Shown here: positions 45,820 through 64,000 of the stretch, piece by piece | How the letters are laid out: each line of letters starts with the position of its first letter | How positions within the stretch are numbered: the stretch's first letter is position 1 | NCBI GenBank assembly: GCA_963693095.2 | Contig: OY843768.1 | Coordinates: 96,001-160,000 of the forward strand | Direction of reading: 5' to 3' | From: Cenarchaeum sp. | GTDB lineage: Archaea; Thermoproteota; Nitrososphaeria; Nitrososphaerales; Nitrosopumilaceae | DNA length: 64,000 bases | The notes under the pieces: model-generated | What the model saw: the letters and a program-made list of their open reading frames with translations, nothing else | Databases searched by the model: none | What the model was told of the DNA's origin: nothing | Program-made: the position numbers and the translations under genes

Positions 45820-46919
45820 TACTGCCGATCAAAAGTCCGTGCCGCATTCCAGCGACGTCCGGCCCAGGTATGCCATCACGTCGAGCCGGTACCTCGTGTG
45901 CCTGAAGTGCCGTGACACCGCCGTCCGCATATCCACCATGGTGGGGTAGTGCTCGGAGACCAGCAGCGCCCGCTTTGCCTGCCGCCACACCTCCTCGATC
46001 GCGTTGAGGTACGGCGAGCCGGTGGGCAGCTCGATCAGCCTCACCGCCCTGTGGGCGCGAAGATAGTCCTTCACCGCCGCGGCCCTGTGCTGCGGCGCCC
46101 TGTCGACGATCACGGCGACCCTGCCGAACTTCCTGTGCATGTCGCGCAGGAACGCGACAAACGTCTCCGCATCGAACCTGTCGTGCACCCGGAAGATCTG
46201 CTTCCCGTCAGTGGAGATCGCGCCGTACACCACGACCCTCCTGTGTCCCCCGGTGTACGGGGCGACGACGGGGACGCCCACGCGCGACCAGTACTTTGAT
46301 CCGTCGGCTGCGCCGTGCACGGCGATGGTCTCGTCCTGCACCACGATGGTGAATCCCGCGCGCCTGAGGCGCCTTATCTCGCGCCGCACCCGGCGCCGCC
46401 AGCCGGCGACAGTCGGCCCGTCGGCCCTGTTCACGTGCACCAGGCGCGTCCGCTTGGCGGAGAGGCCGGCCCTGCGCATTATTTTCCTGACGTGCGACAT
46501 GTGGAACCTCACGCCGGTGGCCCGCTCGATCTCCAGCATGACCTCTGCGGGCGTGACGCGCCCGGGCATTCGGCCAATCAGGCGGCCAAGCTTCTGCCGC
46601 GCGACCAGCGGCGGCCTGCCGGGGCGGGGGCGGTCCCGCAGGGCCTCGACACCGCCACTCCGGTAGCGCGCGACCCACTTGCCGACCCACCTGGGGCACT
46701 GCACGAGCGCAAGTGCGACCTCCTCGCGCGTCATCCCCAGGTTCTCGTGCATGTTGACCGCGGCAAACCTGTACCTGACGTCGCCGTCCCTCTCGTCGCG
46801 GAGTGCCCTGCGGAACGCTTCCAGCTCTTGGCCTTCCATGCGGGGCGTGGGGAGGGGCGATCCATATAGCATGCGGGTCGGGAAAGTTTGATCATGGCAC
46901 GAACTTTTGCTCGTCAGTA
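45820..46919 (-). mobile_element. IS630-family insertion sequence, 1100 bp, apparently intact
   Basis: TIRs TACTGCCGATCAAAAGTCCGTGCC (45820-45843) and TACTGACGAGCAAAAGTTCGTGCC (reverse complement of 46896-46919), 21/24 identical; TA at 45818-19 and 46920-21. Confidence 0.92.
45829..46872 (-). CDS. IS630 DDE transposase
   Basis: HTH W..RY..GG...L.DRPRPGRPP, VQDET, IVDRAPQH, PTGSPYLNAIEEVW; start ATG 46872 or 46839, inside the TIRs. Confidence 0.92.
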   Translation of the reverse strand: MLYGSPLPTPRMEGQELEAFRRALRDERDGDVRYRFAAVNMHENLGMTREEVALALVQCPRWVGKWVARYRSGGVEALRDRPRPGRPPLVARQKLGRLIGRMPGRVTPAEVMLEIERATGVRFHMSHVRKIMRRAGLSAKRTRLVHVNRADGPTVAGWRRRVRREIRRLRRAGFTIVVQDETIAVHGAADGSKYWSRVGVPVVAPYTGGHRRVVVYGAISTDGKQIFRVHDRFDAETFVAFLRDMHRKFGRVAVIVDRAPQHRAAAVKDYLRAHRAVRLIELPTGSPYLNAIEEVWRQAKRALLVSEHYPTMVDMRTAVSRHFRHTRYRLDVMAYLGRTSLECGTDF

Positions 46920-47050
46920 TAGCTCTTATCCTCAAACTCTTCCGGGAGCTCGGCTATGTATCATAGTCTGAGAGGGATATGCCTACGGCTGGAACGCTTA
47001 TCACGACGATCTATCCCTGATATTTCAGTAGATTGGATGTGTAATGTTTT

Positions 47051-49759
47051 TTATCGATCAGCATACTTTTTGATTATGATGTGAACATCATCTGGATCAT
47101 ACGCTACGTCCCACTCCCATTTACCAAACCTACCATCTGCATTCACTGTTTCAATCCATTCTTTCAATGCATCGTGTTTTTTTGTAGTTTGTTCATTATG
47201 TTGTCCTTTAATCTCTAAAATTAACGTGACGTTATTTTCTAGCTGGACAAGATAATCAGGATTATAATCATGAATCTCTCCTTTAAATTGATATTTCACA
47301 TTGAATCCAGATATGTAGTTTTTTACCCATGAGATGACTCTTTCATTTTTGTCTAATTCTTTGCTAGCTTGCTCTTCCCATTTATTATCGCATGGGCTAG
47401 GATTAATATGTGATTTTGTTGCGTTGACAACTTTTTTTGTAGTGTACCATGCTTGCATATCGTTAGTTGATTTTTGTTGTTTTGTGTTGCCAAAAATTAT
47501 TTTTTTATATTTTGTGTTATCAGCTCGTATGAAATCATGTATGTATATGACAATAGTTTTCATGTTGAACATGATCGCTAATTGTTTTCTTATTTTTAAC
47601 TTATCAGTTAAATTTAAAAATTTAATTTTATCTAATTCGATAAATTTCTCAACAATTTTAACAATTTGAAAAAAAAGATAGTTCTTATTTCCTGACCATT
47701 CTGGGATTGTTATATGATCATAAATATCACTTACAGTCTGGAAAATTATTGTTTGCATTCGTAATTTGTTGTAGGATTTCTGCAATGTTATCTCTGAAGC
47801 ACGACTAATGTCTAATTTTGAATCTAGCATTGGGGCTACGTGTATAGTTGTGGTGACTTTTGATCTAATCCTCAATGTTGAAACTTTTTTCCAGTTGATT
47901 TTTAAAACTGGTGTGATTATGGTTTCGATTCTAGCTATGTTTGGCCAGCTTATCTCGTGTTGAATATTGATTGGATCACACGCTATGCGTGTTTTCGTCT
48001 TTTCCTTTCGAATCTTACCTGGTGTGTTCTCATGTGGCAGAAATGAAAACGGTACTCCGAGTATATTGACATATTCTTTATCTAACAAACCAGTTTCAGG
48101 ATCTATTTCATATGATAAGCGGCGTAAACCTCTGCCTACCACTTGTTCACATAAAAGTTGACTAGTAAATGCACGTAACCCCATTATGTGAGTGACATTT
48201 TTTGCATCCCATCCTTCAGACAGCATTTGTACTGCAATAATATTCATTATTTGTTCTCCGGGTTTATCTTTTTGACCCACCGTGTTGATTATTTCACGAA
48301 TGGCATCAGTTTTAGCAGATTGTTTTTCCCCACGTTCAGATTTTAAAACACTTGTATCTATACGACACATTCTATTTTCATCTGCCAGTTCCCCAAATTT
48401 ATATATACTATTCTTAAAAAAATGTACTACTCTGGCTGATGTATGTACACTATTACACACAGTAATCATTACTGGGATTATATTTGATTTTTTCAGCTCT
48501 TTTCGTTTCATCGCCCAATCATTTCCGAGTAATATGTATGCATTACGGACTAAATCGGGTAGTGTCGTTTCGGGTTTTTTTGCGCCTTTTAGATCGCTTT
48601 TTACTTTATCATTGTCGTATATATGATAATATTTGGAACGATCTCCATACTTGAGTGATTTGCCATCATCACCTGCAGGCATACGTGGAGTTTTTACAAG
48701 GCCAGATTCTATAGCATCGTTAAGTGAAAAATCAGAAATTATCCATTTGAATAAAATATCATCGTTTGGCTTATTTTTGCTTGGAATAAACGGCGTAGCT
48801 GTAAAATCAAAGCATGTGACAATAGTTCGTGCTCTATCTAATTTATCAAGTCCTTCGATCCATAATGTGGCCATCATCTCATCCATGTTTGATTCAAAGT
48901 CTGATTGTTCTTCATAGTCATTTTTAAGTTTTCTCCAAGCATGATGTGCTTCATCATTTATCACTATTATGTTATCATAATTATGCTCCAAAATCCTTTT
49001 CGCGAATGCTTCATCGCTTTCAACTCCTCTACGAACCACACTATGAGGTTGATCTTCTGCTGGTTTCAGCGTGTGCCAATTATGAATTTTTAATTTCCCA
49101 TGTCTTAGATTTTCATACATTGAATCTGGTATTATCGAATAAAGATGGTAATAACTGTTTTCTTGATCAGGTGGCCATAGCACTTGCAGTCGTGATTTTA
49201 CAGTAAGTCCTGGAGCAACAACCACAATGTGTTTTGAAAATCTTTTATCTTGTGGGTATGACACTTTGTTTAATATTTGCCATGCGATTACCATTGCCAT
49301 TACTACTGTTTTCCCTGTCCCCGTTGCCATTTTTGAACACAATCTTTTGAACAGTCCACCATCAGTGCCTAGCCCGAGTTCCTTTTTTTCTGATTCGGGA
49401 GACTCTATCATCCAAATTATTGTTTCTATAGCTTCTAATTGACAAAAGAAAAAACGATGTGCTTGACGCATAGATGGATCGTTCCAAAACTCTAGGAGTT
49501 GCCTTGTTATTCCTGTGACCCCGGGATAACCTTTGTCTCTCCATCGATCTACTCGCTCTCTTATGATATTTACAGATTGTATAGGATAAAATGCGCCAGG
49601 ATCATCAATAGAATTGTTTTCTGGAGATGCAATTATGTATCCTGCTGGCCTCCTTTTTCCAACAATGCGTTCGGGCTTGCGTGTCTCGAGATTAAACTTC
49701 CAGTACTCTTTAGGTTTTTCATACGGGTTGCATATTATCAATTGATCGATTTCGTCCAA
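47051..49759 (-). CDS. res: Type III restriction enzyme Res subunit
   Basis: MATGTGKT, INDEAHH, LSEGWD, EQVVGRGLR, PDYLV...LEIKG nuclease motif; AT-rich. Confidence 0.9.
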   Translation of the reverse strand: MDEIDQLIICNPYEKPKEYWKFNLETRKPERIVGKRRPAGYIIASPENNSIDDPGAFYPIQSVNIIRERVDRWRDKGYPGVTGITRQLLEFWNDPSMRQAHRFFFCQLEAIETIIWMIESPESEKKELGLGTDGGLFKRLCSKMATGTGKTVVMAMVIAWQILNKVSYPQDKRFSKHIVVVAPGLTVKSRLQVLWPPDQENSYYHLYSIIPDSMYENLRHGKLKIHNWHTLKPAEDQPHSVVRRGVESDEAFAKRILEHNYDNIIVINDEAHHAWRKLKNDYEEQSDFESNMDEMMATLWIEGLDKLDRARTIVTCFDFTATPFIPSKNKPNDDILFKWIISDFSLNDAIESGLVKTPRMPAGDDGKSLKYGDRSKYYHIYDNDKVKSDLKGAKKPETTLPDLVRNAYILLGNDWAMKRKELKKSNIIPVMITVCNSVHTSARVVHFFKNSIYKFGELADENRMCRIDTSVLKSERGEKQSAKTDAIREIINTVGQKDKPGEQIMNIIAVQMLSEGWDAKNVTHIMGLRAFTSQLLCEQVVGRGLRRLSYEIDPETGLLDKEYVNILGVPFSFLPHENTPGKIRKEKTKTRIACDPINIQHEISWPNIARIETIITPVLKINWKKVSTLRIRSKVTTTIHVAPMLDSKLDISRASEITLQKSYNKLRMQTIIFQTVSDIYDHITIPEWSGNKNYLFFQIVKIVEKFIELDKIKFLNLTDKLKIRKQLAIMFNMKTIVIYIHDFIRADNTKYKKIIFGNTKQQKSTNDMQAWYTTKKVVNATKSHINPSPCDNKWEEQASKELDKNERVISWVKNYISGFNVKYQFKGEIHDYNPDYLVQLENNVTLILEIKGQHNEQTTKKHDALKEWIETVNADGRFGKWEWDVAYDPDDVHIIIKKYADR

Positions 49760-49762
49760 ATC

Positions 49763-52335
49763 TCATGGCTCCATAATTCGTAATGTTTCTATTCCTCTGT
49801 CATCAATTATTTTAACTGCAATTTTTTTATTTGTTCCCAATTTAAACGGTATAGATAATATTCCTGAATATTTCTCCAACAAATATTCTTCAACATATGG
49901 TTTTAATGTTTTTGCTATTTTATTCCATGAGCTTTGTACATCCAACATTGGAAAAAATACTTGTTGTGGGTATATGCTTCGCCCATCATAATCTGTATCT
50001 AACATCCACATAGCAATACGCGTTGGATCGCCGGGTTCAACCTTATTTGTTATTGTATTGTAATAATCAAACTCCTTAACCATTACTTCCCATTCATTTT
50101 TTTTCTTTTTAAGCTCCACGTCAGGTTGACCTATTAACATGAATGATTCATTTTTTATTTGTTTATTTTTTAAATCACTCGTAAACAAATCGCCATTTAT
50201 CTGAGCTTTTAATATTACAATACCGGGCCATCTGAGTTCGTCTATGTCTTTTGCTGCTTCGGGATCAAACTGCAACGCTGCAAAAATCACCATTGCGGGT
50301 TTTTCGCCTAATTTACGAACCTCTTGTATCGCATTTTCAACCTGACGTTGTTCAAGAGGTGTATGTGCTGATCCAAACGATATTAAAACAGTTTTTGTTT
50401 CCTTTTCGTTTGTTTTAGCTTTTGCATGTAACCACCTGGTTGTTGGATGTGGATCTACACTTAGAAATTTTATTTTTTGCTTGTTTTTACCAACAATTCC
50501 AGTTTTTAACAGCTCTTGGCGCCAATCAGACTGTCTTTTACTTTCGTTGTTTTCTAGATCTGATTCTTTATATTGATTAACATACATTAGATCTAATGAC
50601 TTGGACGTTGGTGATGGTACTGCCTCTACTGTGAACGGGCCTGATACTCTCGTCTTTGACGAATCTTTGTCTGGACAATCGTACAAAATTACATTGTTGG
50701 GTTCTTCATCATGTGATATTGATTTTTGAGTTATTTGTTGTATTTTTTTATATGAAAATCCAGCATCAATACCTTGGCCGGGGTTTTCTAATTTATAATA
50801 TTTATAAGTCGCAGTCATTAATCTTCTTTTTGTTAATGCAATTGCCACGCGTGATGTGTCACATGTAATCCAACGTCTCCCAAATTCTTCTGCTACGAAT
50901 GCGGTTGTCCCAGATCCGCAAGTAGGATCTAATATGAGATCACCTGGATCGCTAGTCATCAATATGAATCGACGAATTACTTTAGCTGTGGTTTGAACAA
51001 CATATATCTTGTTTTCAAATCCCCCACTACTTGTGTCATCCCACATATTCTGGAGTTCGGCGTATTCAAAATCATTGAAATAGCGCACATATGATAACCT
51101 GTTACCATTTTTCATAATTCGATTTTTTGTGATCAAGTATTTCATGCCTTTAAGTGATGCCTTCCAATGACTATGCTGACCAGGTGTGAACACTTCACCG
51201 TCAAATATGAGAGAATCGTCACTCTTTGACTTGCCCGGAGATGTTGTGGCAGCAAGCCTATAAATTTTTGATTCTGATGGTATGCTAAGTGGGTTATCTC
51301 TTTGCTCCTTTGTCATTCTTATACGTTCGCCCTCTTTTAATTCTAAATATTTGTAATTCGGATCGTTGATGGGCAATTCTTTTTTTGTATACAGTTTGTG
51401 AGATTTTAACAGTTTTTTATTTTTTGCATACCATACAATATAATCAAACACCACTGAAATATGCGTACTTGTAGAATTTGATGTTTTTCTAAATGAGATC
51501 ACGCTTACAAAATTCTCATACCCAAACACTTCATCCATTATTATGCGTACATAATGCAAATTATCATCAGAAATTTGTACCCCACAACTTCCAGTTTCAT
51601 TTAATAGCTCTTTTGCTAAAATTAACCGATCGCGCAAGTATCCCAAGTATGAATGAATTCCATGCTTCCATGTGTCTCTAAATGCTGTCACCATTTCTGG
51701 TTCCTGTGTGAGATCATCATCATTACGATCTTTAACATTCATTTTATTTACAAACGGTTGAAAGTTTGACTTATATTCAATACCGTATGGCGGATCTATG
51801 TATATTGTTTGAATTTTTCCTGCAAAATTTTCTTTTTGTAATAGGGAGTTCATAACTAACAGAGAATCTCCGGCAATTAATCGATTTGACCAATTATGTG
51901 AATGTTGATAAAATTGCAATGCTTCTCGTAACGGAAGATTGTATTCATCATGATCAAAATGAAGGGTAATTTTTTGTTGGATGTGAGTCTCTGGCTTCAG
52001 AATTTTATCAATAATTGTTATAGGATCAATACGTTCATGTTGATGTAGCGACACTGTATCGATTTCAAAATTTCCATCTTTTTGCTTCTCAAACCAGACT
52101 AATACCGGGTCTAAATGAGGGTCATATTCGTATTTGGTTGGATCATGATCACGATCTGTGTTGGGATCAACAAGCCCTACGGGTGGGTTATTTGGTCGTG
52201 CGCTACTGTGATAATACTGCTGAATGCGTTCTCGTAGCTTGGGTTCTGACTTTGATGCTTTTGTGGCTTTATTTTTTGACTTTTTGCTGGGGGGGGGGGT
52301 CGTCGTGTTCCTATTTTCGTTTTAGTCAACGGCAT
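49763..52335 (-). CDS. mod: Type III R-M Mod subunit (amino-methyltransferase, probably N6-adenine), frameshifted at a C11 tract
   Basis: IYIDPPY and LDPTCGSGTT motifs; long frame open to 52321 without a start before GTG 52054; ATG 52335 joins it only with C9 or C12. Confidence 0.88.
52289..52299 (-). repeat. Homopolymer C11 (G11 on + strand) in the 5' coding region of mod
   Basis: + strand gct-GGGGGGGGGGG-tcg inside an otherwise AT-rich island. Confidence 0.95.
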
Positions 52336-55613: not shown

Positions 55614-56372
55614 GTGGCCTTTGAGAAGGCCATCGCAGCAGTGGCGACTGACGCAATGCGTTTTGTGAATGCCGGCGATACCATTGGACTTGGAAGCGGA
55701 AGGGCCGCGACTGCGTTCGTGCGCGCACTAGGCAAGCGCGTCGTGACCGACGGCCTTGACGTGCGCGGCATACCCACGTCGATGCAGATACGCCTAGTCG
55801 CCGAGGACGCCGGCGTGCCGCTCATCGACGCCGGCCAGGCCGCCTCGATAGACGCCGCCTTTGACGGGGCCGACCAGATAGACGCGCGCGGCAACATGGT
55901 AAAGGGCGGCGGCGGGGCGCTCTTGCGCGAAAAGATACTCATCTCGGCGGCGCGGCGCGTCATCATCATGGCAGATCGCACAAAGTTCTCGCGCCACCTC
56001 TCGATTCCAGTCCCCGTCGAGGTTCACGCGTCTGCGCGCTCGCATGTGGCATCGCGCGTGGAAAGACTCGGCGGAGCGCCGTCGATCAGGCGCGACGCGC
56101 GCGGCTATCCGGCGTTCACCGAGAACGGCAACATTGTCCTAGAGTGTGACTTTGGGACAGTGCGCGAGCCTGCCACACTGGAGCGCTCGCTGGGCCACAT
56201 CGCCGGCGTCATGGAGTCGGGCCTCTTTACGTCGCGCACGGCCGCAATATACAAGGCCGGTCCGCGCGGCGCCTTTGAGGTCACTGGAGCGGCGAGACGA
56301 GGCGCCCGTGCCCCGCCGGCCCGACGACCTCTGAGCCGTCGGCGACAAGCACGCCGCGCACAATCGTCTTGA
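55614..56372 (+). CDS. rpiA: Ribose-5-phosphate isomerase A
   Basis: IGLGSG, FDGADQ, KGGGGALLREK, TENGN. Confidence 0.94.
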   Translation: MAFEKAIAAVATDAMRFVNAGDTIGLGSGRAATAFVRALGKRVVTDGLDVRGIPTSMQIRLVAEDAGVPLIDAGQAASIDAAFDGADQIDARGNMVKGGGGALLREKILISAARRVIIMADRTKFSRHLSIPVPVEVHASARSHVASRVERLGGAPSIRRDARGYPAFTENGNIVLECDFGTVREPATLERSLGHIAGVMESGLFTSRTAAIYKAGPRGAFEVTGAARRGARAPPARRPLSRRRQARRAQSS

Positions 56373-57669
56373 CGGGCCAGCCCTTTAGCGACATCCCGTC
56401 ATAGACGCTATAGTCAGAGTGGCCGCCAAACATGGCGTGGTCGAGCCTTCGCTCTAGGCGCGTGTCTATTATGGCGATATCTGCGTCGAATCCGGCCTCG
56501 ATTGGGCCCTTTTGCGGCGAGAGCGCAAATATGCGCTCGGCGTTTGCGCTAGTCAGCTCGGCGAGGCGGTTCAGCGTGAGCCTTCCGCGGTTGAGTCCCT
56601 CGCTCAGCAAAAGCGGGAGCGATGCGCCAATGCCGGGAAATCCGGCAAGCGCGCCCCACACGTCGCTGCCTGCGAGCTTTGCGTCGCGCGTGTTGGCGAC
56701 GTGGTCGGTCCCTATCGTGTCTATCTCGCCTTTTGCGATGGCGTTCCAGACGGCATCAACGTCAGACTGCGAGCGCACCGGTGGCATGACCTTTGCGAGG
56801 TATCCATCGCGGCCCTCGTGCGAGAGCGCAAGATAGTGCGGGCACGTCTCGACATGTATGCGCGTCCCGCGCGACCTCTCGAGGCGGATCTGCTCGAGCG
56901 CGCGCGCCGAGCCCACATGCACAAAGTACATCGTGCAGCCGTGGCGCCTTGCCATCTCGCAGACGCGCGCAATTGCTGCGGCCTCGTACTCGGGCGAGCG
57001 GCTCTCTGACCACGCGCGCAGGCCGTCGTTGCCGGCCGCACGCGACTCGCGCATCGAGCACGCGCATGACTCATAGTCCTCGGCATGAACGCAGACTGGC
57101 AGGCCGGTCCGCGAGGCCTTTTTGACCACCTTGTCGACTAGCGCGTCGGTGACCTCGACGTCGGCCATCTGTGGTGCGCCGGCCCCGGGATCGAGATCCA
57201 TGTGAACGTGGCCAATCTCGCCGCCGAGGTTCATGTAGACCTTGAAGGACGATATTCCGGTGACTGCCGTCTCGTACATCTCCTCGGCCTGCGCGTCATT
57301 GAATATCGAGGCGTGGACTCCATAGTCGATGTGGTGGGCCTTTGCGCTCGCCTCGAGCTGGGGGCCAAGTGAGCTCGAATAGGGGTCGACCCTGCGCAGC
57401 ATGCGCATCATTGTCGTCACGCCGCCGATGGCAGCAGCATGCGACTCGGTCGCCGCAGCCCTGTCTATGGGCGTGTACACGCCATAGTGGACGTGCGTGT
57501 CTATGGCGCCCGGAAGCGAGACTAGGCCGTCGGCCCTAATGCGCGTCTCGCACGCCGGCTCGTCGGCCGTGACTGCGGTGACCTTGCCGCCGTCTATGAC
57601 GATGTTGCGGTCCATGACGCCCTTTGGCGTGATGACGTGCGAGCCCGTTATGACCATGTCGTGTGCCAC
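56281..57669 (-). CDS. Cyclic amidohydrolase (dihydroorotase/hydantoinase/allantoinase family)
   Basis: IDTHVH, GGVTT, SFKVY, VHAE, ETCPHYL, PPVR, GTDH. Confidence 0.85.
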   Translation of the reverse strand: MAHDMVITGSHVITPKGVMDRNIVIDGGKVTAVTADEPACETRIRADGLVSLPGAIDTHVHYGVYTPIDRAAATESHAAAIGGVTTMMRMLRRVDPYSSSLGPQLEASAKAHHIDYGVHASIFNDAQAEEMYETAVTGISSFKVYMNLGGEIGHVHMDLDPGAGAPQMADVEVTDALVDKVVKKASRTGLPVCVHAEDYESCACSMRESRAAGNDGLRAWSESRSPEYEAAAIARVCEMARRHGCTMYFVHVGSARALEQIRLERSRGTRIHVETCPHYLALSHEGRDGYLAKVMPPVRSQSDVDAVWNAIAKGEIDTIGTDHVANTRDAKLAGSDVWGALAGFPGIGASLPLLLSEGLNRGRLTLNRLAELTSANAERIFALSPQKGPIEAGFDADIAIIDTRLERRLDHAMFGGHSDYSVYDGMSLKGWPVKTIVRGVLVADGSEVVGPAGHGRLVSPLQ

Positions 57670-57839
57670 TGTGGCGCCCGCCTGCGCCTGCGTCTCTATA
57701 TTCCTTTTAGGCCGTGGGCGCGCCTGTGGGGCGCCCTGCGGCTTTTGTGCCTAATTCCCCGCCACGGGTGGCGATTGGGCACAGTTGCAATGGCAATCTT
57801 CATATAATGTTGGTATATGCCATCCCGCCGTTGGAATTC

Positions 57840-58001
57840 ATGGTGACAAGAAGGATTGTAAGCGGCGGACGGTCTGCTAGGCGTGGTGTCGGTGCCGTGC
57901 GCGCAGGCGAGGCCGTGTATGGCCGCCACGTCAAGGCGTGGCGCGCCATAGCGGACAGGGCGCTGGCCAAAATAGGCTGCACGGCGGGGGCGAGGCCCTA
58001 A
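57840..58001 (+). CDS. Micro-ORF A1 (paralog of 59115-59336)
   Basis: MVTRR...RHVKAWR; CATATAA box at ~57801; TAATG coupling to next ORF. Confidence 0.6.
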   Translation: MVTRRIVSGGRSARRGVGAVRAGEAVYGRHVKAWRAIADRALAKIGCTAGARP

Positions 58002-58249
58002 TGACCGAGACGATCACGCGCAGGCGCCCGCGGGTCACGTACCATCCCGACCAGGTGAGGCGCGGCAAGGACATACTCGCCTCGATGCCCGAGAAGGAGC
58101 GCGAGTGGTACCTCGCCAAGGTCAGGGACGGCACGTTCACGCTCGCCGAGACGCATGGTATGCTCGCCGTGGGCGAGTCCATGAGGCTCGGCCGCGAGGA
58201 GGGCACAAGGCGCCGCAACGTGCGCGTGGGCCTGGAGGCGCTGTCCTGA
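58001..58249 (+). CDS. Micro-ORF B1
   Basis: RPRVTYHPDQVRRGKDIL..M..KEREWY...GLEALS; paralog of B2 and B3. Confidence 0.72.
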   Translation: MTETITRRRPRVTYHPDQVRRGKDILASMPEKEREWYLAKVRDGTFTLAETHGMLAVGESMRLGREEGTRRRNVRVGLEALS

Positions 58250-58398
58250 TGGCCGCAAAGCTGGCGCGCGTGTGCTCGCACTGCCACGGCACCAGGCACG
58301 GTGAGTCAGTGGGCACGCTCAAGGGCGGCTTTCACTGGGTGCATCATATGTGCCTGACCGGCTACCTCACCGACCACCCGGAGGCGGTCGAGACGTGA
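58249..58398 (+). CDS. Micro-ORF Z1, Cys/His-rich (Zn-finger-like)
   Basis: MAAKLARVCSHCH...HWVHHMC; TGATG coupling; GGAGG upstream. Confidence 0.62.
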   Translation: MAAKLARVCSHCHGTRHGESVGTLKGGFHWVHHMCLTGYLTDHPEAVET

Positions 58399-58646
58399 CC
58401 CACCTGCCACCCACCACCAGGGAGAGGAATTTCCCCAGGGTAAAGTGGCCCGAGCAGGACCCCGAGGCCGTGAGGCGCGGCAGGGAGGTGCTCGCGCGAC
58501 TGCCGCCCGAGGAGCGCGAGGGGATCATCGATGACGCCAGGACAAACGGCGAGCCCGAGGACGTGATGCTCGCCTCGCTGTACGCCGCGTCCCGCCTGCA
58601 CGAGGCGCTCAACCCCGGCGAGGCCGGGCGGGAGGCCAAGCAATGA
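58395..58646 (+). CDS. Micro-ORF B2
   Basis: FPRVKW..DPEAVRRGREVLARLPPEERE; GTGA coupling; GGAGG upstream. Confidence 0.65.
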   Translation: MTHLPPTTRERNFPRVKWPEQDPEAVRRGREVLARLPPEEREGIIDDARTNGEPEDVMLASLYAASRLHEALNPGEAGREAKQ

Positions 58647-58876
58647 CCAACGGCGCCGAGTCCGTGGAGGAGCTGAACCCAAAGCTCGTCCCCGTCAGGG
58701 GCGACGACGACCTCATCGGTGGCGAGGGCACCGCCATGCACCACCGGTGCAGGATATATGGCTGCAGCTCAACGTGGCCGGTCGGCGACGCAAAGGCTTA
58801 CGACATCATCTACGGCCGGTGGTGGTGCCAGTCGCACGTGCCGGGCGCAGAGCACACCAGGGAGGTGTTGCACTAG
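58643..58876 (+). CDS. Micro-ORF Z2, Cys/His-rich (CxxxxC...CxxH)
   Basis: CRIYGC...WWCQSH; ATGA coupling; GGAGG upstream. Confidence 0.65.
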   Translation: MTNGAESVEELNPKLVPVRGDDDLIGGEGTAMHHRCRIYGCSSTWPVGDAKAYDIIYGRWWCQSHVPGAEHTREVLH

Positions 58877-59113
58877 ATGGCGGGAACGGCGCAGGTGCGC
58901 CAAAGGCCACGGATCATATACGACTCCGACGTGGTGAGGCACGGCAAGGCCATCTTTGACAGGATGACCGATGATGAGCAGGAGTGGTACCGTCGCAGCC
59001 TCGCCCATGGCCTCACGCTCGACGACGTGTACGGCTCACTCGCCGTGACCGAGGCCATAGCCCGCGGCAACGCGGGACGCAGCGTGCGCGAGGGTCTGGA
59101 GGCGATCTCCTGA
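58877..59113 (+). CDS. Micro-ORF B3
   Basis: RPRIIYDSDVVRHGKAIF..M..DEQEWY...VREGLEAIS; GGAGGTG upstream. Confidence 0.72.
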   Translation: MAGTAQVRQRPRIIYDSDVVRHGKAIFDRMTDDEQEWYRRSLAHGLTLDDVYGSLAVTEAIARGNAGRSVREGLEAIS

Positions 59114-59114
59114 C

Positions 59115-59336
59115 ATGGTGAACTGCAACTGTGGCAACGGTTCGGCTCCGCACAAGGTGTGGTGCGCCATCCGCGCCGGACAGCGCGAGAGGCGTGTGAC
59201 GCAGGCAGTGCGTCCCGAGAAAAAGATGACAAAGGCGCAAAAGCGGCTCGCAGACCATGACCGGCACGTCAAGGCGTGGCGCGAGGTAGTCGAGAGGGTG
59301 CGCAACAACCTGGACAGCAATGCAGAAAAGTCCTAG
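59115..59336 (+). CDS. Micro-ORF A2
   Basis: MVNCNC..H..WC...RHVKAWR; shares 19-bp CACGTCAAGGCGTGGCGCG with A1. Confidence 0.62.
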   Translation: MVNCNCGNGSAPHKVWCAIRAGQRERRVTQAVRPEKKMTKAQKRLADHDRHVKAWREVVERVRNNLDSNAEKS

Positions 59337-59471
59337 ACGGCCATCATGGCCAGCCTGCGTGATTGACTGCCTGTCAGATCACCGCGAGGCCAAAAAGGAC
59401 GAAACGGGGGCGAGAATGTCGCCCCATGCGCGCGCCCAAGATCGCAGACATGACAACAGTGATATAATCAT

Positions 59472-60068
59472 GTGAGACTCTGTGGCCTGTTGAATAAAAC
59501 ACGTGCCGATCCATTATCCGTCCCAGAGTCACTCCTTGCCGCCTCCATGCGCAATGTGCCGCATCGGGGCGCGTTGCCCCTCACTCCGGATATCTTTCCG
59601 CCGATCCCTCAGAGCCGCCCCAAGAAGATCCGCAAAAAGTCAGCCTTGCCAACACCTGACATCGCCTCGTCTATCCTTGCCGCCTCCATGCGCAATGTGC
59701 CGCATCGGGGCGTCCCTCCGTTCACGGTAGCCTCGTATATGTCACGGCAGCAGCACCCCTCTGGGAATCTGCCTGGTAAACCAATGGTGCCCTCCTCACG
59801 CTTTGACACGGTGGACACTAGCACGGCAAACTCCGTGTCCATTGAGGAATCGCATGGGCGAGGCCGCGTCGCGGCCAATTCGTTCTCCAAGGGAATCGTT
59901 TTCCTGATCGCCGCGGCGCTTTTCATCTATCTGGTCTACCGTAAATACCGCCGTCATCGTGTAGAACGTCAAAAACGCCGTGAGCTGAGCATTCTCAAGA
60001 ACGAGCGCCGTGCAGGACGCCAAGAGCTCAAAACGCGCAAATCAAAGAGCCGCAAACAGCGGAAATGA
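59472..60068 (+). CDS. Hypothetical membrane-anchored protein or fragment with internal repeat
   Basis: LAASMRNVPHRG twice; one TM then basic tail; start unclear. Confidence 0.4.
   Translation: MRLCGLLNKTRADPLSVPESLLAASMRNVPHRGALPLTPDIFPPIPQSRPKKIRKKSALPTPDIASSILAASMRNVPHRGVPPFTVASYMSRQQHPSGNLPGKPMVPSSRFDTVDTSTANSVSIEESHGRGRVAANSFSKGIVFLIAAALFIYLVYRKYRRHRVERQKRRELSILKNERRAGRQELKTRKSKSRKQRK
59533..59712 (+). repeat. 39-bp perfect direct repeat (59533-59571 and 59674-59712)
   Basis: TCCTTGCCGCCTCCATGCGCAATGTGCCGCATCGGGGCG twice, 141 bp apart. Confidence 0.92.
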
Positions 60069-60129
60069 CGGCAATGCCACCGTATGCAACGCGCCCTTGC
60101 CAATCACCCTGGTGCGGCGCACGCACCCT

Positions 60130-60414
60130 ATGTTCGCGGCTGGATGGTTGCATTTGAGCTATCATTGGGGCGCGCCGGTACAGGATCACCCTGTAACATC
60201 GTACATATGGGAAGAGTTTTTCTGGGTCACGTTTGATGTCACGACATGGCTGATCCTCCTCATCGTCGTTGGGATCAGCGCGCGATTTGTGCGGATCAGT
60301 GTGCGCGAGCGCCGCGTGTCCGAGGGCACAGAGGACATTTCACGGGGAATGGAAGAGAACATTCGCGACATTCTGCGCGAGACCTATCTGTTCCTGTTTC
60401 CGTGGACCAGATGA
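60130..60414 (+). CDS. Small membrane protein
   Basis: Hydrophobic WLILLIVVGIS segment; start uncertain. Confidence 0.4.
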   Translation: MFAAGWLHLSYHWGAPVQDHPVTSYIWEEFFWVTFDVTTWLILLIVVGISARFVRISVRERRVSEGTEDISRGMEENIRDILRETYLFLFPWTR

Positions 60415-60453
60415 CGCCGGCGCCCTGCTGCGCAATGTGGCGCACCGCGCGCA

Positions 60454-61392
60454 CTAGGTGATGATGACTGCTGACATGGCGGGGTCAATGGATGCCCCCA
60501 TGGCATAGCGCGCGCCAATCCTGCACTCGCCGCCACTGTTGCCAATGATGACCTCTAGGGTGCTCAGTGCCACGCTGACCGAGCCCCTTGCGGCAACGAG
60601 CACGCTGTCCCAGCCCGTGCCCGCCGCGTCCCCAAACGCGGGGCTCACCACCACGCTCACCCCGTCGACCTCCATCTCTCCGGCCCACAGGTCATTGCTG
60701 TCAAACAGCAGCCTTGCCTGCCTTGGGGAGGCCACGCAGAACAGCCCGTGCGGAAACCTCGTGCCGTGGTTGGCGTCAGCTATTGCCCGTGCGGCCCTTA
60801 GGACATCGGCGCCCTCTAGCGCGCCGCTCTCGCCGACATCACGGGTTCTCCTCTTGTCGTCCATGCGCAGCGTCCTTGCGAGCATTGGCCCGTCTGAGCG
60901 AATCAGGCTGGAGCGAACCGCGCGCTCGACGTCGAGGAGAACCTCGTCACGTATGGACGCGAGCATGTCGCGCGCCACGTTGGAGCCGTCCTCAGCCAGG
61001 GCATCCTGGCTGACATTGTGCCATATGCCCTCCTGCACGGAGAACTCGGTCTCCACGACACGGTGCGTCCTCGTGCCGGCCTTGACCCCGAGCGCCTCGC
61101 GCGTCCTGTGCGGGGCACCGAGGGCTATGCGACCATGCGTTCCGTCGGCGTTCACGCCCACCTCAGTCACGCTGGCATGGTCGATCACCGAGTCGCGTGC
61201 CGTGGGCATTATGCGCCCAATGGGAACCTGCCACGAGACGGCGCCTCCCTCGCCGAGCTCCCCGGCCCCATCGCCGAGTATGCCCCTGACGGCAGGCCAC
61301 ATGGGCTCGCCGCTCCTGAACGCGCCTGTGATCGAGTAGCATATTGCGTCCCATCCTGCGCTACTGTCATCCTGTCCCTCCATTGCGGACAC
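60454..61392 (-). CDS. Capsid-like protein (probable HK97 fold; viral MCP or encapsulin-like)
   Basis: Motif order recognised by eye: VSQDALAE..NV, long helix, DVLRAARAI, CVASPRQ..LL, GVSVVVS, GSVSVA..LEV, ARYAMGASIDP..AVII. Confidence 0.5.
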   Translation of the reverse strand: MSAMEGQDDSSAGWDAICYSITGAFRSGEPMWPAVRGILGDGAGELGEGGAVSWQVPIGRIMPTARDSVIDHASVTEVGVNADGTHGRIALGAPHRTREALGVKAGTRTHRVVETEFSVQEGIWHNVSQDALAEDGSNVARDMLASIRDEVLLDVERAVRSSLIRSDGPMLARTLRMDDKRRTRDVGESGALEGADVLRAARAIADANHGTRFPHGLFCVASPRQARLLFDSNDLWAGEMEVDGVSVVVSPAFGDAAGTGWDSVLVAARGSVSVALSTLEVIIGNSGGECRIGARYAMGASIDPAMSAVIIT

Positions 61393-61498
61393 TGCGCACG
61401 GGGCATATTTGAACCATGGCCGCAGCTCTGGCGCGCAACGCCGTGCGCACGATGCGGGGTAAATGGTTAAAAGAAGCGCACCCTCGCCGGCTGCGCAC

Positions 61499-61573
61499 GG
61501 GCCAGTGGTTTAGTGGTATAATGCCGCGTTCGCAACGCGGAAGTCAGGGGTTCAATTCCCCTCTGGTCCACCA
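61499..61573 (+). tRNA. tRNA-Ala(CGC) with encoded CCA
   Basis: Acceptor stem GGGCCAG/CTGGTCC with G3:U70; anticodon arm CCGCG-TTCGCAA-CGCGG; T arm GGTTCAATTCC; TTAAAA box upstream. Confidence 0.95.
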
Positions 61574-61585
61574 CATGATCTACGC

Positions 61586-62983
61586 CTAGGCGCCGGCTGC
61601 GCACCTGTTCGGACCGGCCTCGAGGTCGGGGATCATTGCGGGGTTTAGCGGCATCGAGCCGCGATTGAAGCGGATTATCATCGAATAGTTTGGCGGCTTT
61701 GGCGGGATCGATGCCGTCACCCTCTTGACAAACTCTGCCCTCTCGGCACCATAGAGCTCGCCTGACTTTAGCGCACCGACGCCGATGCCGTACGAGCCGT
61801 CTGGCGACGGCGTGGCGTCCTCTGACCTGTGTGACGGGAGTATGAGCGTGCCCTCGGGCAGCGCGCCGAGCCTCGAGTGGATTGTGTCATGCAGCTCGCC
61901 GGCGGCGGACTCGGCGTCCTCGTGGAGGTCAGGCCTCCCGACACCGCCGGCAAACGCCGTGTCGCCGCAGAACGCAAGGCTTTCGGTGACATATGCCATG
62001 CTGCCCGGCGTGTGGCCCGGCACGCGCATCGCGCGCAGCTCGCCCTCGCCAAACCGTATCGCATCACCGTCGCCAATGCGCTCGCACTCTATGTCGTATT
62101 TCTCGCCGGCGCTAAGGTAGAGCTTTGCGCCAGTCGATGCCGCAAGCTCCCTTGATGCCGATATGTGGTCTGCGTGGCAGTGCGTGTCGGCGACTGCGAC
62201 GATCTCGGCTCCGGCGTCAGCGGCAATCCTCGCGTACGCGCCGACGGGGTGCACTGCGTCGATGACTGCGGCCTTGGCCCCGCTTGCGACAATGTACGAG
62301 AGGCAGCCCTTGCCGACCTTTTCGACCTGGATGACCTCCACGCTGCCACTCGATATCTTTTTGGGGACAAGAACCTGGCTCCAGCCGGCCATGCCGCCGT
62401 CAAGTGACGTCGACTCTATGCCGTTTCGCGCAAGCGCAAACGTGGCGACCATTGAGCGGTTGCCATGCGAGCATATCGTGACGACCTTTTTGTCCCTCGG
62501 TATGGCATCACACGCGCCCTTTTCAAAGAGCTTTGCCAGCGGCACGTTGACTGCGCCGTCGATCATGTGGGCCGCGCACTCGTCAGGCTCCCTGACATCG
62601 AGGAGAAACACGTCACTGCGGCTCTGCCAGAGCTCGTCACCGGAGATGAGCGGGCTGTGCGAGCCCTTTACGGTCTGGCCTGCCCAGCCGGCCATGCCGC
62701 CCTCGAGGTGGTGCGCGTCGATGCCAAACTGGGCCATCATGCCGGCGTTGCGAGACGACTCTGCCCCGTCGGCGTCGATGAGGACCACCTTTGAGCCGCG
62801 CGGCATCTTTGCCATGATGATCTGCTTTTGCTGCATCGAGCCGCAGCGCGCGTTGGCCGCGCCCCTCACGTGGCCGGCCACATAGTCGTCAGCAGGCCGC
62901 ATGTCGAGTATCATCGTGCCGTCGCCTGCGGCGATGATCGACTCTAGGTCGCCTGCGCTGATTCCCGTGCCCATTGCGGGCAT
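61586..62983 (-). CDS. Double rhodanese plus MBL-fold hydrolase fusion (persulfide dioxygenase-like)
   Basis: LDMR..GHVRGA, LDVREP..CSHGNRS, THCHADHIS, PGHTPGS, GDT.F..GVGRPDL. Confidence 0.88.
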   Translation of the reverse strand: MPAMGTGISAGDLESIIAAGDGTMILDMRPADDYVAGHVRGAANARCGSMQQKQIIMAKMPRGSKVVLIDADGAESSRNAGMMAQFGIDAHHLEGGMAGWAGQTVKGSHSPLISGDELWQSRSDVFLLDVREPDECAAHMIDGAVNVPLAKLFEKGACDAIPRDKKVVTICSHGNRSMVATFALARNGIESTSLDGGMAGWSQVLVPKKISSGSVEVIQVEKVGKGCLSYIVASGAKAAVIDAVHPVGAYARIAADAGAEIVAVADTHCHADHISASRELAASTGAKLYLSAGEKYDIECERIGDGDAIRFGEGELRAMRVPGHTPGSMAYVTESLAFCGDTAFAGGVGRPDLHEDAESAAGELHDTIHSRLGALPEGTLILPSHRSEDATPSPDGSYGIGVGALKSGELYGAERAEFVKRVTASIPPKPPNYSMIIRFNRGSMPLNPAMIPDLEAGPNRCAAGA

Positions 62984-63131
62984 GGCGATTCATGCCAAAT
63001 TTAGCGTTTTGCCATGGGCTGCCTGTGGCTTGACGGTATGCGCACACGCGTGCCTGTCCGGGGCCGTCGGCACCGTGCGTGCGCGCGGCTGCGGCGACAC
63101 GATTTTACAAGGCGCAGCCCGTGCGCGCCCC

Positions 63132-64000
63132 ATGCGGCCCGCGCATGTCCTCCTCGTGCTGGCGATCCTGGTGATCCCGTGCGCAGCGTCTGCGCAGATC
63201 ATCTCGCCGGGCGACCCCGTCGAGCCCCCGCGGGGCCAGCAGGGCACGCCTGGCCTTATCCCCGATCCGGTCGGGCGCACCGGCGCACTCTTGCCGACGC
63301 CGACCCCGCAGGGAGGCGCACAGGACGGCCCTGCGGCGCAGGGCCTCTGGGTCTCGCACGCGCGCATGTCAGTCGCGCGCTCTGAGGTCGCCGTCGTCGC
63401 AGTCGATGACACGGTCTACGTTATCGCCGGACTCGACGCTGACGGCCGCGCGACGCGCACGCTGGAGGCATACGACACTGTGTCTGGAACGTGGAGCACG
63501 CGCGCACCGGCCCCCGATGCGCTGCACCATGCGGCCGCCGCGACTGATGGTGCGCTAGTCTATGTCGTTGGCGGATACACGCCCTTTGGCATTCCGTCAT
63601 CATCGCTATACGTGTATGATCCGCTCGATGACTCGTGGTCGTCCGGCCCAAACATGCCAACTGCGCGCGGGGCGCTCGCCGCCGCGTTTGTTGGCACGAG
63701 CCTGTATGCGCTTGGCGGTGCGGCATACGGCAGGGCACTTGACACCGCCGAGGTGTATGACACGTCGACGGGAACGTGGGACACGATCGCGCCCATGCCG
63801 ACTGCACGCGACCATCTTGCGGCAGCCACACTTGACGCGCGCGTGCATGCGATCGGCGGGCGCAACATATCGCTCTCATCGAACACCGGTGCGCACGAGG
63901 CGTACAGTGCGGCACTCGGAGCCTGGGAGGAGCTAGACGGCCTGCCCACGCCGCGCGGCGGGCTGGCCGCAGCGTCCATCGGCGGCAGCATATTTGTCAT
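63132..64000 (+). CDS. Secreted Kelch-repeat protein (partial, runs off window)
   Basis: Not in ORF track; signal MRPAHVLLVLAILVIPCAASA, Pro-rich linker, repeats with VY(V/A)(I/V/L)GG...YD...W..MPTAR. Confidence 0.88.
   Translation, partial: MRPAHVLLVLAILVIPCAASAQIISPGDPVEPPRGQQGTPGLIPDPVGRTGALLPTPTPQGGAQDGPAAQGLWVSHARMSVARSEVAVVAVDDTVYVIAGLDADGRATRTLEAYDTVSGTWSTRAPAPDALHHAAAATDGALVYVVGGYTPFGIPSSSLYVYDPLDDSWSSGPNMPTARGALAAAFVGTSLYALGGAAYGRALDTAEVYDTSTGTWDTIAPMPTARDHLAAATLDARVHAIGGRNISLSSNTGAHEAYSAALGAWEELDGLPTPRGGLAAASIGGSIFV

Follow-up and report, generated by a model that had tools for sequence, protein, structure and literature searches.

Type II toxin-antitoxin systems of the ParD, MazE and KacA types, whose antitoxins we take to be ribbon-helix-helix (RHH) proteins, consist of small overlapping genes in which one for a helical protein of ~80 amino acids (aa) comes first; in integron arrays, small exchangeable cassettes follow one another behind one promoter, in an order that differs between close relatives; and small zinc-finger micro-proteins have been reported in haloarchaea. 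In archaeal viruses, acr/aca clusters combine small anti-defence genes with a conserved small regulator, as outlined in the available text of PMC11065993. Dark matter islands (PMC4158269) and the cryptic integrated elements of Thaumarchaeota (PMC6563490) hold, as far as the available text of both sources goes, narrowly distributed, fast-evolving small genes near tRNA genes, with virus-like neighbours. Here we describe an array of seven small genes that resembles each of these systems in part, located in a 64,000-nucleotide (nt) stretch of DNA from Cenarchaeum sp. (positions 96,001–160,000, forward strand, of contig OY843768.1 in assembly GCA_963693095.2), hereafter the window. This is part of a 2.0-Mb genome with ~62% guanine plus cytosine (GC), in which an archaeal AmoA is also encoded; the organism is therefore an ammonia-oxidizing archaeon. 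Such archaea are hard to grow, and their conflict systems and micro-proteins are, to our knowledge, almost unexplored.

The array comprises seven open reading frames (ORFs) on the plus strand, in the order A1-B1-Z1-B2-Z2-B3-A2, spanning positions 57,840–59,336 between a divergently oriented amidohydrolase gene and a tRNA-Ala(CGC) gene (Table 1). We rate it as a set of small island genes that evolve fast and whose layout recalls antitoxin or anti-defence loci, distinguished by three orphan families and by an unusual internal structure of repeats and shuffling. The explanation that we favour, and hold tentatively, is that of a lineage-restricted conflict module derived from mobile elements, in which fast-evolving B binders and Cys/His-rich, probably zinc-binding proteins lie between conserved A genes. 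Within 1.5 kb, the locus unites three orphan families under contrasting selection, a natural series of cassette variants and a defined slot beside a tRNA gene. Should B and Z turn out to work as neutralizer-effector pairs or in anti-defence, the catalogue of archaeal defence and counter-defence would gain new families, and strain-level dynamics a marker; should the genes be ordinary regulators, their interest would be modest.

The likeness to type II toxin-antitoxin systems extends to the best structural neighbours of B, the island-like slot and the fast evolution of B; however, there is no sequence or profile relation, the Cys/His micro-proteins encoded downstream belong to no toxin family, the pairing is not obligate here (the forms A1-B-A2 and Z2′-Z1′ occur) and the two A genes have no counterpart there. 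With acr/aca clusters, as they appear in the available text of PMC11065993, the array shares a strong TATA promoter followed by small genes without annotation, variable genes beside conserved ones and a narrow spread, whereas it is chromosomal, is found at one and the same site in two species, and contains neither an integrase nor any virus gene other than a single HK97-fold one; in PHROGs and PADLOC, its proteins showed no homology to known Acr or Aca. Compared with the dark matter islands and the thaumarchaeal cryptic elements, it is far smaller, at 1.5 kb alone and 3.8 kb together with its neighbours, and lacks an integrase and att repeats, and its internal repeats (three B, two A) and cassette shuffling are not described for those elements in the available text of PMC4158269 and PMC6563490. 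Unlike integron arrays, it has no integrase in the neighbouring genes and no attC-like inverted repeats at the ends of the cassettes, and its junctions are stop/start overlaps with a Shine-Dalgarno motif. Likened by description only, its Cys/His-rich proteins agree with the haloarchaeal micro-proteins in having 49–77 aa and two pairs of Cys/His ligands, and differ from them in sharing a variable slot with the B and A genes to which they are coupled.

The original prediction, made from the DNA sequence, was of seven coupled ORFs of 49–83 aa in A-B-Z-B-Z-B-A order beginning at position 57,798, and this layout held: all are on the plus strand and are joined, in order, by TAATG, TGATG, GTGA and ATGA overlaps (1–4 nt), one abutment and one 1-nt gap. 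The predicted start takes in the promoter box, but the first gene begins at 57,840, a start backed by frame-breaking 1-nt indels found upstream of this position in relatives. As also anticipated, most starts (five of seven) are preceded by GGAGG, at 12–17 nt; B1 has GAGG at −9, and no GGAGG was found before A1, the first gene of the array. This motif occurs eight times in the 1.5 kb of the array, compared with 0.95 per kb window-wide. The single upstream TATA-like box that had been proposed sits in a 16-nt block, CTTCATATAATGTTGG, invariant between the window and a congener, G004; a second TATATG near it is not conserved in G004. These signals suggest a single promoter, a near-leaderless A1 with a very short leader and coupled translation of the remaining genes. 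An Rfam scan detected the tRNA alone, and a scan for sigma-70 promoters and terminators, which is not designed for archaea, returned nothing relevant. Upstream of the amidohydrolase gene, ~25–40 nt from its start and on the opposite strand, there is a second conserved AT-rich box, TCTCTATATTCC, which is probably that gene's own promoter; if so, two divergent promoters would lie within ~170 nt.

High-GC DNA such as this contains many long ORFs on both strands, and in G004 an antisense ORF of 310 aa spans the locus, so the seven ORFs might have arisen by chance and not be genes at all. We consider this extremely improbable. A1 shares 51 of 53 residues with its G004 counterpart, with nine synonymous and two non-synonymous codon changes, and A2 shows 16 and seven, respectively; in both genes the substitutions are concentrated in third codon positions, and A1 and A2 have ratios of non-synonymous to synonymous substitution rates (dN/dS; Nei-Gojobori method, window against G004, as throughout) of 0.13 and 0.12, respectively. 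The GC content of B, Z and A2 is 0.77–0.93 at third codon positions and 0.45–0.49 at second positions, values like those of the neighbouring genes; in the antisense ORFs that overlap them, second positions have 0.64–0.69. Gene-typical values are thus confined to the plus-strand frames. Likewise, six B sequences (the three paralogs plus three others) all keep the reading frame, the Cys/His core of Z2 is kept in its relative P0018, despite unrelated N-termini, and the knuckle of A2 is kept in G004 and in a further relative, P0016. Paralogy, dN/dS, codon-position composition and the conserved Cys/His patterns together lead us to reject chance ORFs. The seven genes form one real operon, presumably transcribed as a single polycistronic unit and translated in a coupled manner.

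Three families could be distinguished in the array, in agreement with the original prediction that the B and A genes were paralogs and that the Cys/His-rich ORFs alternating with B were unrelated. B1 and B3 align with E = 3e-17 (33 of 77 positions identical), and B1 and B2 with E = 3e-7; the match of B2 to the B profile (E = 4.9e-32) is a self-match, since the alignment behind the profile includes B2. Nine alignment columns are invariant across the six B sequences. A1 and A2 align with E = 3e-6 and have in common one helix with the motif RHVKAWR, whereas Z1 and Z2 show no similarity on alignment. The 19-nt exact repeat predicted in the two A genes lies within a 45-nt stretch that is 80% identical between them, and 15 nt of it, CACGTCAAGGCGTGG, do not vary among the four A genes that the window and G004 contain between them. 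This conservation may be due to a preference for certain codons, to gene conversion or to a role in binding. Four Cys/His residues, arranged in two pairs, occur in each of Z1, Z2 and the A2 N-terminus, a pattern that makes zinc binding probable. The A proteins show no recognizable helix-turn-helix (HTH) or RHH domain in Pfam or NCBIfam scans.

No family had been recognized for these proteins in the original prediction, and indeed none of the seven reaches threshold in Pfam, PHROGs, NCBIfam or PADLOC. B2 gave 21.5 bits to GPP34, below the cut-off of 29.1, and was the only one of the six B sequences to do so at E ≤ 10; similarly, sub-threshold matches of A2 to DUF7365, to the Val-tRNA-synthetase arm and to an IS5 transposase model (E = 0.01) were dismissed. 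The B profile finds three copies in its own genome, all at this locus, and B is present in two of 61 relatives and two of 401 family genomes, own genome (G000) included. We also searched a set of 5.8 billion clustered proteins with B and Z2, and another of 1.84 billion representatives with B. In the first set, B retrieved five clusters, corresponding to B1, B2, B3, the G004 protein and P0004, which has 89% identity to B1; in the second, only two B-like proteins were found, P0005 (B2 itself) and a new one, P0006, for which no locus was found in the searched genome and metagenome contigs. The other eight of the ten representative matches at E ≤ 1e-3 (219–6527 aa, with 3–8 matched stretches each) were taken as repeats or low-complexity sequence and were not individually examined. 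Besides itself, A2 retrieved only P0016 (69% identity), and Z2, in the 5.8-billion-protein set, only P0018 (57% identity). These last two were each found on a 48,898-nt contig, taken as one and the same; P0006 is on a contig of 80,761 nt and P0004 on one of 154,788 nt.

Neither Z1 nor Z2 has a relative in four congeners, and Z1 gave only chance-level matches in 400 other family genomes. Five of the 401 family genomes searched with Z1 gave matches, at per-genome E values of 2.8e-5 to 8e-3, which were rejected; the best, the one inspected, contains stop codons. Weak A2 matches at six places in two family genomes, G090 and G168 (E = 1e-3 to 7e-3), were taken as chance on the basis of the one place inspected, which lies inside a 513-aa ORF. 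B1 and Z2 have no relative in IMG/VR, nor Z2 in GenBank phages, in searches that detect close relatives only; an IMG/VR match to Z2 (L026), which covered residues 3–25 only and was antisense to a 493-aa ORF, was rejected. The ESM Atlas gave no usable match for B1. A literature search returned no description of the array, which, there being no gene names to search by, is weak evidence of its being unpublished. The available text of PMC6563490, PMC11065993 and PMC4158269 covers broad categories to which the locus might belong and does not mention this array.

Selection differs markedly along the array. The neighbouring genes show dN/dS values of 0.16 (amidohydrolase), 0.30 (RpiA) and 0.05 (rhodanese-metallo-beta-lactamase), and the low values of A1 and A2 given above denote purifying selection. 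For B1 and the B of G004, dS is 0.204, dN 0.206 and dN/dS 1.01; since this dS equals that of the neighbours, the two genes are orthologs of the same age. Over 68 ungapped codons, the ratio for B is 1.32, with 22 amino-acid changes and five purely synonymous ones, and the non-synonymous excess against the five genes A1, A2 and the three neighbours has a Fisher p ~1e-6. B is the fastest-evolving part of the array, and A1 and A2 are its conserved parts. As a separate observation, the dS of A2 against G004 (L005, 7274–7498) is 0.47, more than twice that of A1 (0.21) and of the flanking genes (0.10–0.19), and B3 compared with the B of G004 has a dS of 0.48, near that of A2; the high value for A2 may be noise (49 synonymous sites) or may indicate that the right half of the array comes from a more distant allele.

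The purifying selection on A1 and A2, together with their native GC and codon make-up, would also be expected of host regulatory micro-proteins, that is, zinc-finger and helical DNA- or RNA-binding proteins serving the cell's own physiology, and small zinc-finger proteins have been reported in archaea. Nevertheless, the genes are absent from the corresponding slot of one congener, G003, and replaced in that of another, G002, and a search of 399 other family genomes did not recover them; additionally, cassette content varies among co-occurring lineages and the dN/dS of B is at least 1. We therefore regard host regulators as quite unlikely.

The chromosomal slot between the amidohydrolase and tRNA-Ala genes is itself variable. 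In the window, it contains the seven genes plus 2.1 kb with an HK97-fold gene; in G004, it holds A1-B-A2 only, followed by 0.4 kb and then the tRNA. G003 has an empty site, with 80 nt separating the amidohydrolase start and the tRNA-Ala, and in G002 the gene upstream of the amidohydrolase is of the HATPase_c_3 type (GHKL ATPase) and encodes a protein of 396 aa that is cut by the contig end. The different gene in G002 and the empty site in G003 indicate that the slot is a hot spot of recombination or integration in the genus. Blastn comparison of the window with G004 showed similarity from the left flank to position 58,251, at the end of B1, resuming at 59,066, in the last 50 nt of B3. As the 3′ ends of both B1 and B3 match that of the single B of G004, the segment Z1-B2-Z2-B3 differs between the two genomes by one recombination between B genes, which may have been a gain or a loss.

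The original prediction proposed looking for other arrays with different Z genes; relatives contain A1-B-A2, Z2′-Z1′-A2′ and B forms of the P0006 type. Contigs from four public runs were placed on positions 56,800–61,700 at a likeness of at least 80% and showed, besides the form found in the window, five variants, the joints of which rest on short metagenome assembly contigs. In variant (i), 58,251 is joined to 59,120, so that B is directly followed by A2, in the A1-B-A2 form. In variant (ii), the middle of B is replaced: the end of A1 and the start of B are followed by 139 unlike letters and then by the end of B3 and the start of A2, and the loose ends read, by eye, as the start and an internal stretch of P0006. 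Variant (iii) has a back-joint from 58,844 via 9 nt to 58,245, by which Z2′ overlaps the start of Z1′ through the same TGATG; the Z2-like gene ends, again by eye, exactly like P0018. Variant (iv) leads from 58,393 via 64 nt to 59,148, giving Z1′ and then A2′ in the spelling of P0016, and in variant (v) 59,326 is joined to 61,433, without the 2.1-kb segment. Contigs of co-occurring relatives also contain a copy of Z1 that is ~87% identical. Consequently, there are at least four arrangements among close lineages in the same runs, including Z2′-Z1′-A2′ with no B in between. Such gain, loss and reshuffling between very close relatives point to a conflict or mobile-element module rather than to housekeeping genes.

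The variants also bear on the partnership of B and Z. A layout of two genes, antitoxin then toxin, with coupled translation is seen in B1/Z1 (TGATG overlap), B2/Z2 (ATGA overlap) and B3/A2 (1-nt gap), with GGAGG before the starts of Z1, Z2 and A2, and yet relatives show B-A2 and Z2′-Z1′. The form Z2′-Z1′-A2′ without B argues against obligate B-Z pairs. The idea, put forward in the original prediction, of a constant B partner accompanying variable zinc-binding peptides was not supported: B is the fastest-evolving family, G004 has A1-B-A2 without Z, Z2′-Z1′ occurs without B and the B profile shows no sequence relation to RHH domains.

We modelled B1 with AlphaFold2 from six sequences (mean predicted local distance difference test, pLDDT, of 79), obtaining a basic coil arm (residues 1–15) and helices at residues 16–28, 31–42 and 48–81. 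In a structural search of 48,161 PDB representatives, seven of the top ten matches were, by title, chains of toxin-antitoxin complexes (5ceg, 6xrw, 5zgn, 7ycs, 6a6x, 7ycv and 4me7), which cover model residues 11–82 with Z-scores of 4.4–5.5; an eighth, 7etr, is presumably another such chain, and the remaining two are MatP and a ribosomal chain. Four further antitoxin entries appear lower in the top 50. We assume the matched chains to be RHH antitoxins, as one title says. In this model-based comparison, B could be an antitoxin-like small helical binder, which we put forward as a lead and not as a finding.

The array could also be a strict series of type II toxin-antitoxin pairs, with each B an RHH antitoxin for the zinc protein encoded downstream (B1-Z1, B2-Z2 and B3-A2). 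The antitoxin-like gene coming first, the overlaps of 1–4 nt, the structural neighbours and fast evolution of B and the island-like setting of the slot all agree with such a series. It is nonetheless unlikely, given that Z2′ and Z1′ adjoin without B, that the A1-B-A2 form exists and that A1 is left unexplained; furthermore, the C-termini of B1, B3 and the B of G004 are similar despite different downstream partners, B has no sequence relation to RHH domains, and Z and A2 match no toxin family.

The HK97-fold gene of the 2.1-kb segment (capsid- or encapsulin-like) brings in another explanation, the nearest rival to a conflict module: that the locus is the remnant of a provirus or integrated element and the array its early or anti-defence region, with A1 and A2 as regulators and B and Z as variable inhibitors of host systems. 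The encoded protein scored 0.96 in the ESM Atlas to clusters of phage capsids. Its AlphaFold2 model is of low confidence (pLDDT 57), and Foldseek gave it 212 matches in the PDB at E ≤ 1e-3, of which those ranked highest are almost all capsids of phages or archaeal viruses, encapsulins and related shells, with encapsulins matching equally well; no match was found in IMG/VR or GenBank phages. As a virus hallmark gene it stands alone, and it is absent from the slot of G004. Paralogs occur in three of 301 family genomes (two copies in G000, two in G004 and a weak one in G090), and the three loci inspected lie among genes for OLD-family ATPase, AbiJ, GmrSD, DUF4145 and TPR proteins, with no terminase or portal. 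This lone HK97-fold family, restricted to the genus, might consist of provirus relics, of encapsulins or of proteins put to use in defence.

A provirus remnant would fit small (49–83 aa), orphan, fast-turnover genes between conserved small ones, an HK97-fold gene 1.1 kb downstream, a location adjoining a tRNA in a slot that is empty in G003 and a single strong-looking TATA box; archaeal acr/aca genes likewise lie amid small unannotated genes behind strong promoters, according to the available text of PMC11065993. Conversely, no integrase, terminase, portal or att site was found, G004 keeps A1-B-A2 without the HK97-fold gene, and the HK97-fold paralogs are solitary genes that lie outside proviruses, surrounded by OLD-family, AbiJ and GmrSD genes. 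Additionally, in two species A1 and A2 occupy a fixed chromosomal site and evolve under purifying selection, they have no recognizable HTH or RHH domain, and the searches of IMG/VR (B1 and Z2) and GenBank phages (Z2) found no match. We see such a remnant as possible but doubtful. The original suggestion of a viral or plasmid early or anti-defence array gained support only in its flavour of mobile elements and conflict, as seen in the variable tRNA slot, the HK97-fold neighbour, the cassette differences and a fast-evolving B with weak toxin-antitoxin-like matches, whereas the searches made with B1 and Z2 returned no relative from viruses or plasmids.

Table 1. Coordinates of the array, its slot and other features; positions refer to the window unless a locus of another genome or contig is named
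Feature	Position	Strand	Remarks
TATA-like box ATATAA	57802–57807	+	~35 nt 5′ of the A1 start; putative promoter, from sequence
A1	57840–58001	+	53 aa; Arg/Gly-rich N-terminus and one helix with RHVKAWR motif
19-nt exact repeat, copy 1	57927–57945	+	Inside A1
B1	58001–58249	+	82 aa; basic N-terminal arm and three helices
B1 3′ end	58202–58251	+	Matches the 3′ end of the single B of G004, as does the B3 3′ end (59066–59115)
Z1	58249–58398	+	49 aa; Cys/His-rich; CxxC ... HxxC-type pattern, from one sequence only
B2	58395–58646	+	83 aa; GTG start; most divergent B paralog, without the GLEALS-type C-terminus
Z2	58643–58876	+	77 aa; Cys/His-rich core C-x4-C-x20-C-x2-H
B3	58877–59113	+	78 aa; B paralog
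A2	59115–59336	+	73 aa; N-terminal C-x-C-x6-H-x3-C knuckle and helix with RHVKAWR
19-nt exact repeat, copy 2	59265–59283	+	Inside A2
2.1-kb variable segment	59337–61432		Absent from G004 and some co-occurring lineages; holds the 198-aa ORF and the HK97-fold gene
198-aa ORF	59472–60068	+	Membrane-like C-terminal part predicted; in the 2.1-kb segment absent from G004
HK97-fold gene (capsid- or encapsulin-like)	60454–61392	−	312 aa; lone; no Pfam or PHROG match
Amidohydrolase gene	56281–57669	−	Pfam PF01979; bounds the variable slot on the left; synteny shared with G004, G002 and G003
Conserved AT-rich box	57693–57708	−	Probable promoter of the amidohydrolase gene
tRNA-Ala (CGC)	61499–61573	+	Right border of the variable slot
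G002 slot gene	L029 (G002:C170) 3–1190	−	HATPase_c_3
G003 empty slot	L030 (G003:C26) 265–420
HK97-fold paralog locus	L039 10025–11044
HK97-fold paralog locus	L037 9833–10852
HK97-fold paralog locus	L038 9497–10666
Low-GC island	45829–52054		35–36% GC
DDE_3 (IS630-type) transposase gene	45829–46935
Type III Res gene	47051–49759	−
Type III Mod gene	49763–52054	−
Kelch-repeat gene	62901–63998	+	Runs off the window

Returning to the conflict module that we tentatively favour, A1 and A2 would be conserved bookends forming a stable core that encloses exchangeable B and Z cassettes, and recombination, acting where genes meet in short conserved junctions and at the 3′ ends of B, would add, remove and re-order these cassettes. 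The locus may have been left by mobile elements, or be exchanged through them, and be maintained in a slot prone to recombination. The part of B would be that of a small binder or neutralizer, quick to diversify, antitoxin-like and possibly DNA-binding, whose target may be the zinc micro-proteins, through contact with Z or A, or lie outside the array; the Cys/His micro-proteins would serve B as partners or effectors. A bolder proposal sees here an undescribed archaeal conflict system, a recombining array of A genes framing swappable B neutralizers and Z effectors, whose combinations, differing among close symbiont lineages of one habitat, would serve as a strain-level code of immunity or incompatibility; to this we assign a low probability.

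Several results weigh against a conflict module. Its B component lacks a match by PDB sequence search and a Pfam match above threshold, and Foldseek found nothing for it at E ≤ 0.001 in PDB or BFVD; all its structural matches have Z-scores ≤ 5.5, below the level that the tool itself deems meaningful for helical proteins, and might reflect a common helical arrangement. Alignment of the B profile with an 18-sequence RHH_1 domain alignment from relatives (hhalign) gave a probability of 0.29%. The dN/dS of B near 1 could stem from relaxed constraint and not from an arms race, as two sequences cannot separate positive from relaxed selection. As to partners, scans of Pfam, NCBIfam and PADLOC showed no resemblance of the proteins encoded downstream to known toxins or defence proteins, B1, B3 and the G004 B end in similar C-terminal sequences despite being followed by different genes, and in the protein sets no B was found on the contig of the lineage with Z2′-Z1′-A2′. 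As to mobility, there is no integrase-like ORF between 54.7 and 64 kb and no viral gene in the slot besides the HK97-fold gene; no att repeat longer than 14 nt was found, and the 14-nt repeats lie near the tRNA only (61,392/61,491 and 61,485/61,591), with none at the left border. Lastly, the GC content of the array equals that of the genome, and so bears no mark of recent arrival.

Other features of the window were also recorded. The 198-aa ORF contains an internal direct repeat of 141 nt, with 44-nt cores at 59,528 and 59,669; we discarded it as a dispersed element, its 38-nt core being found at two places only in the genome. Further upstream, an island with a GC content far below the ~62% found elsewhere (Table 1) holds a type III restriction-modification pair, Mod and Res, adjoined by the DDE_3 transposase gene, and looks like a recent horizontal arrival. 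At the right end of the window, downstream of the rhodanese/metallo-beta-lactamase gene, lies a gene for a Kelch-repeat protein, a eukaryote-like repeat protein that is conserved in G004.

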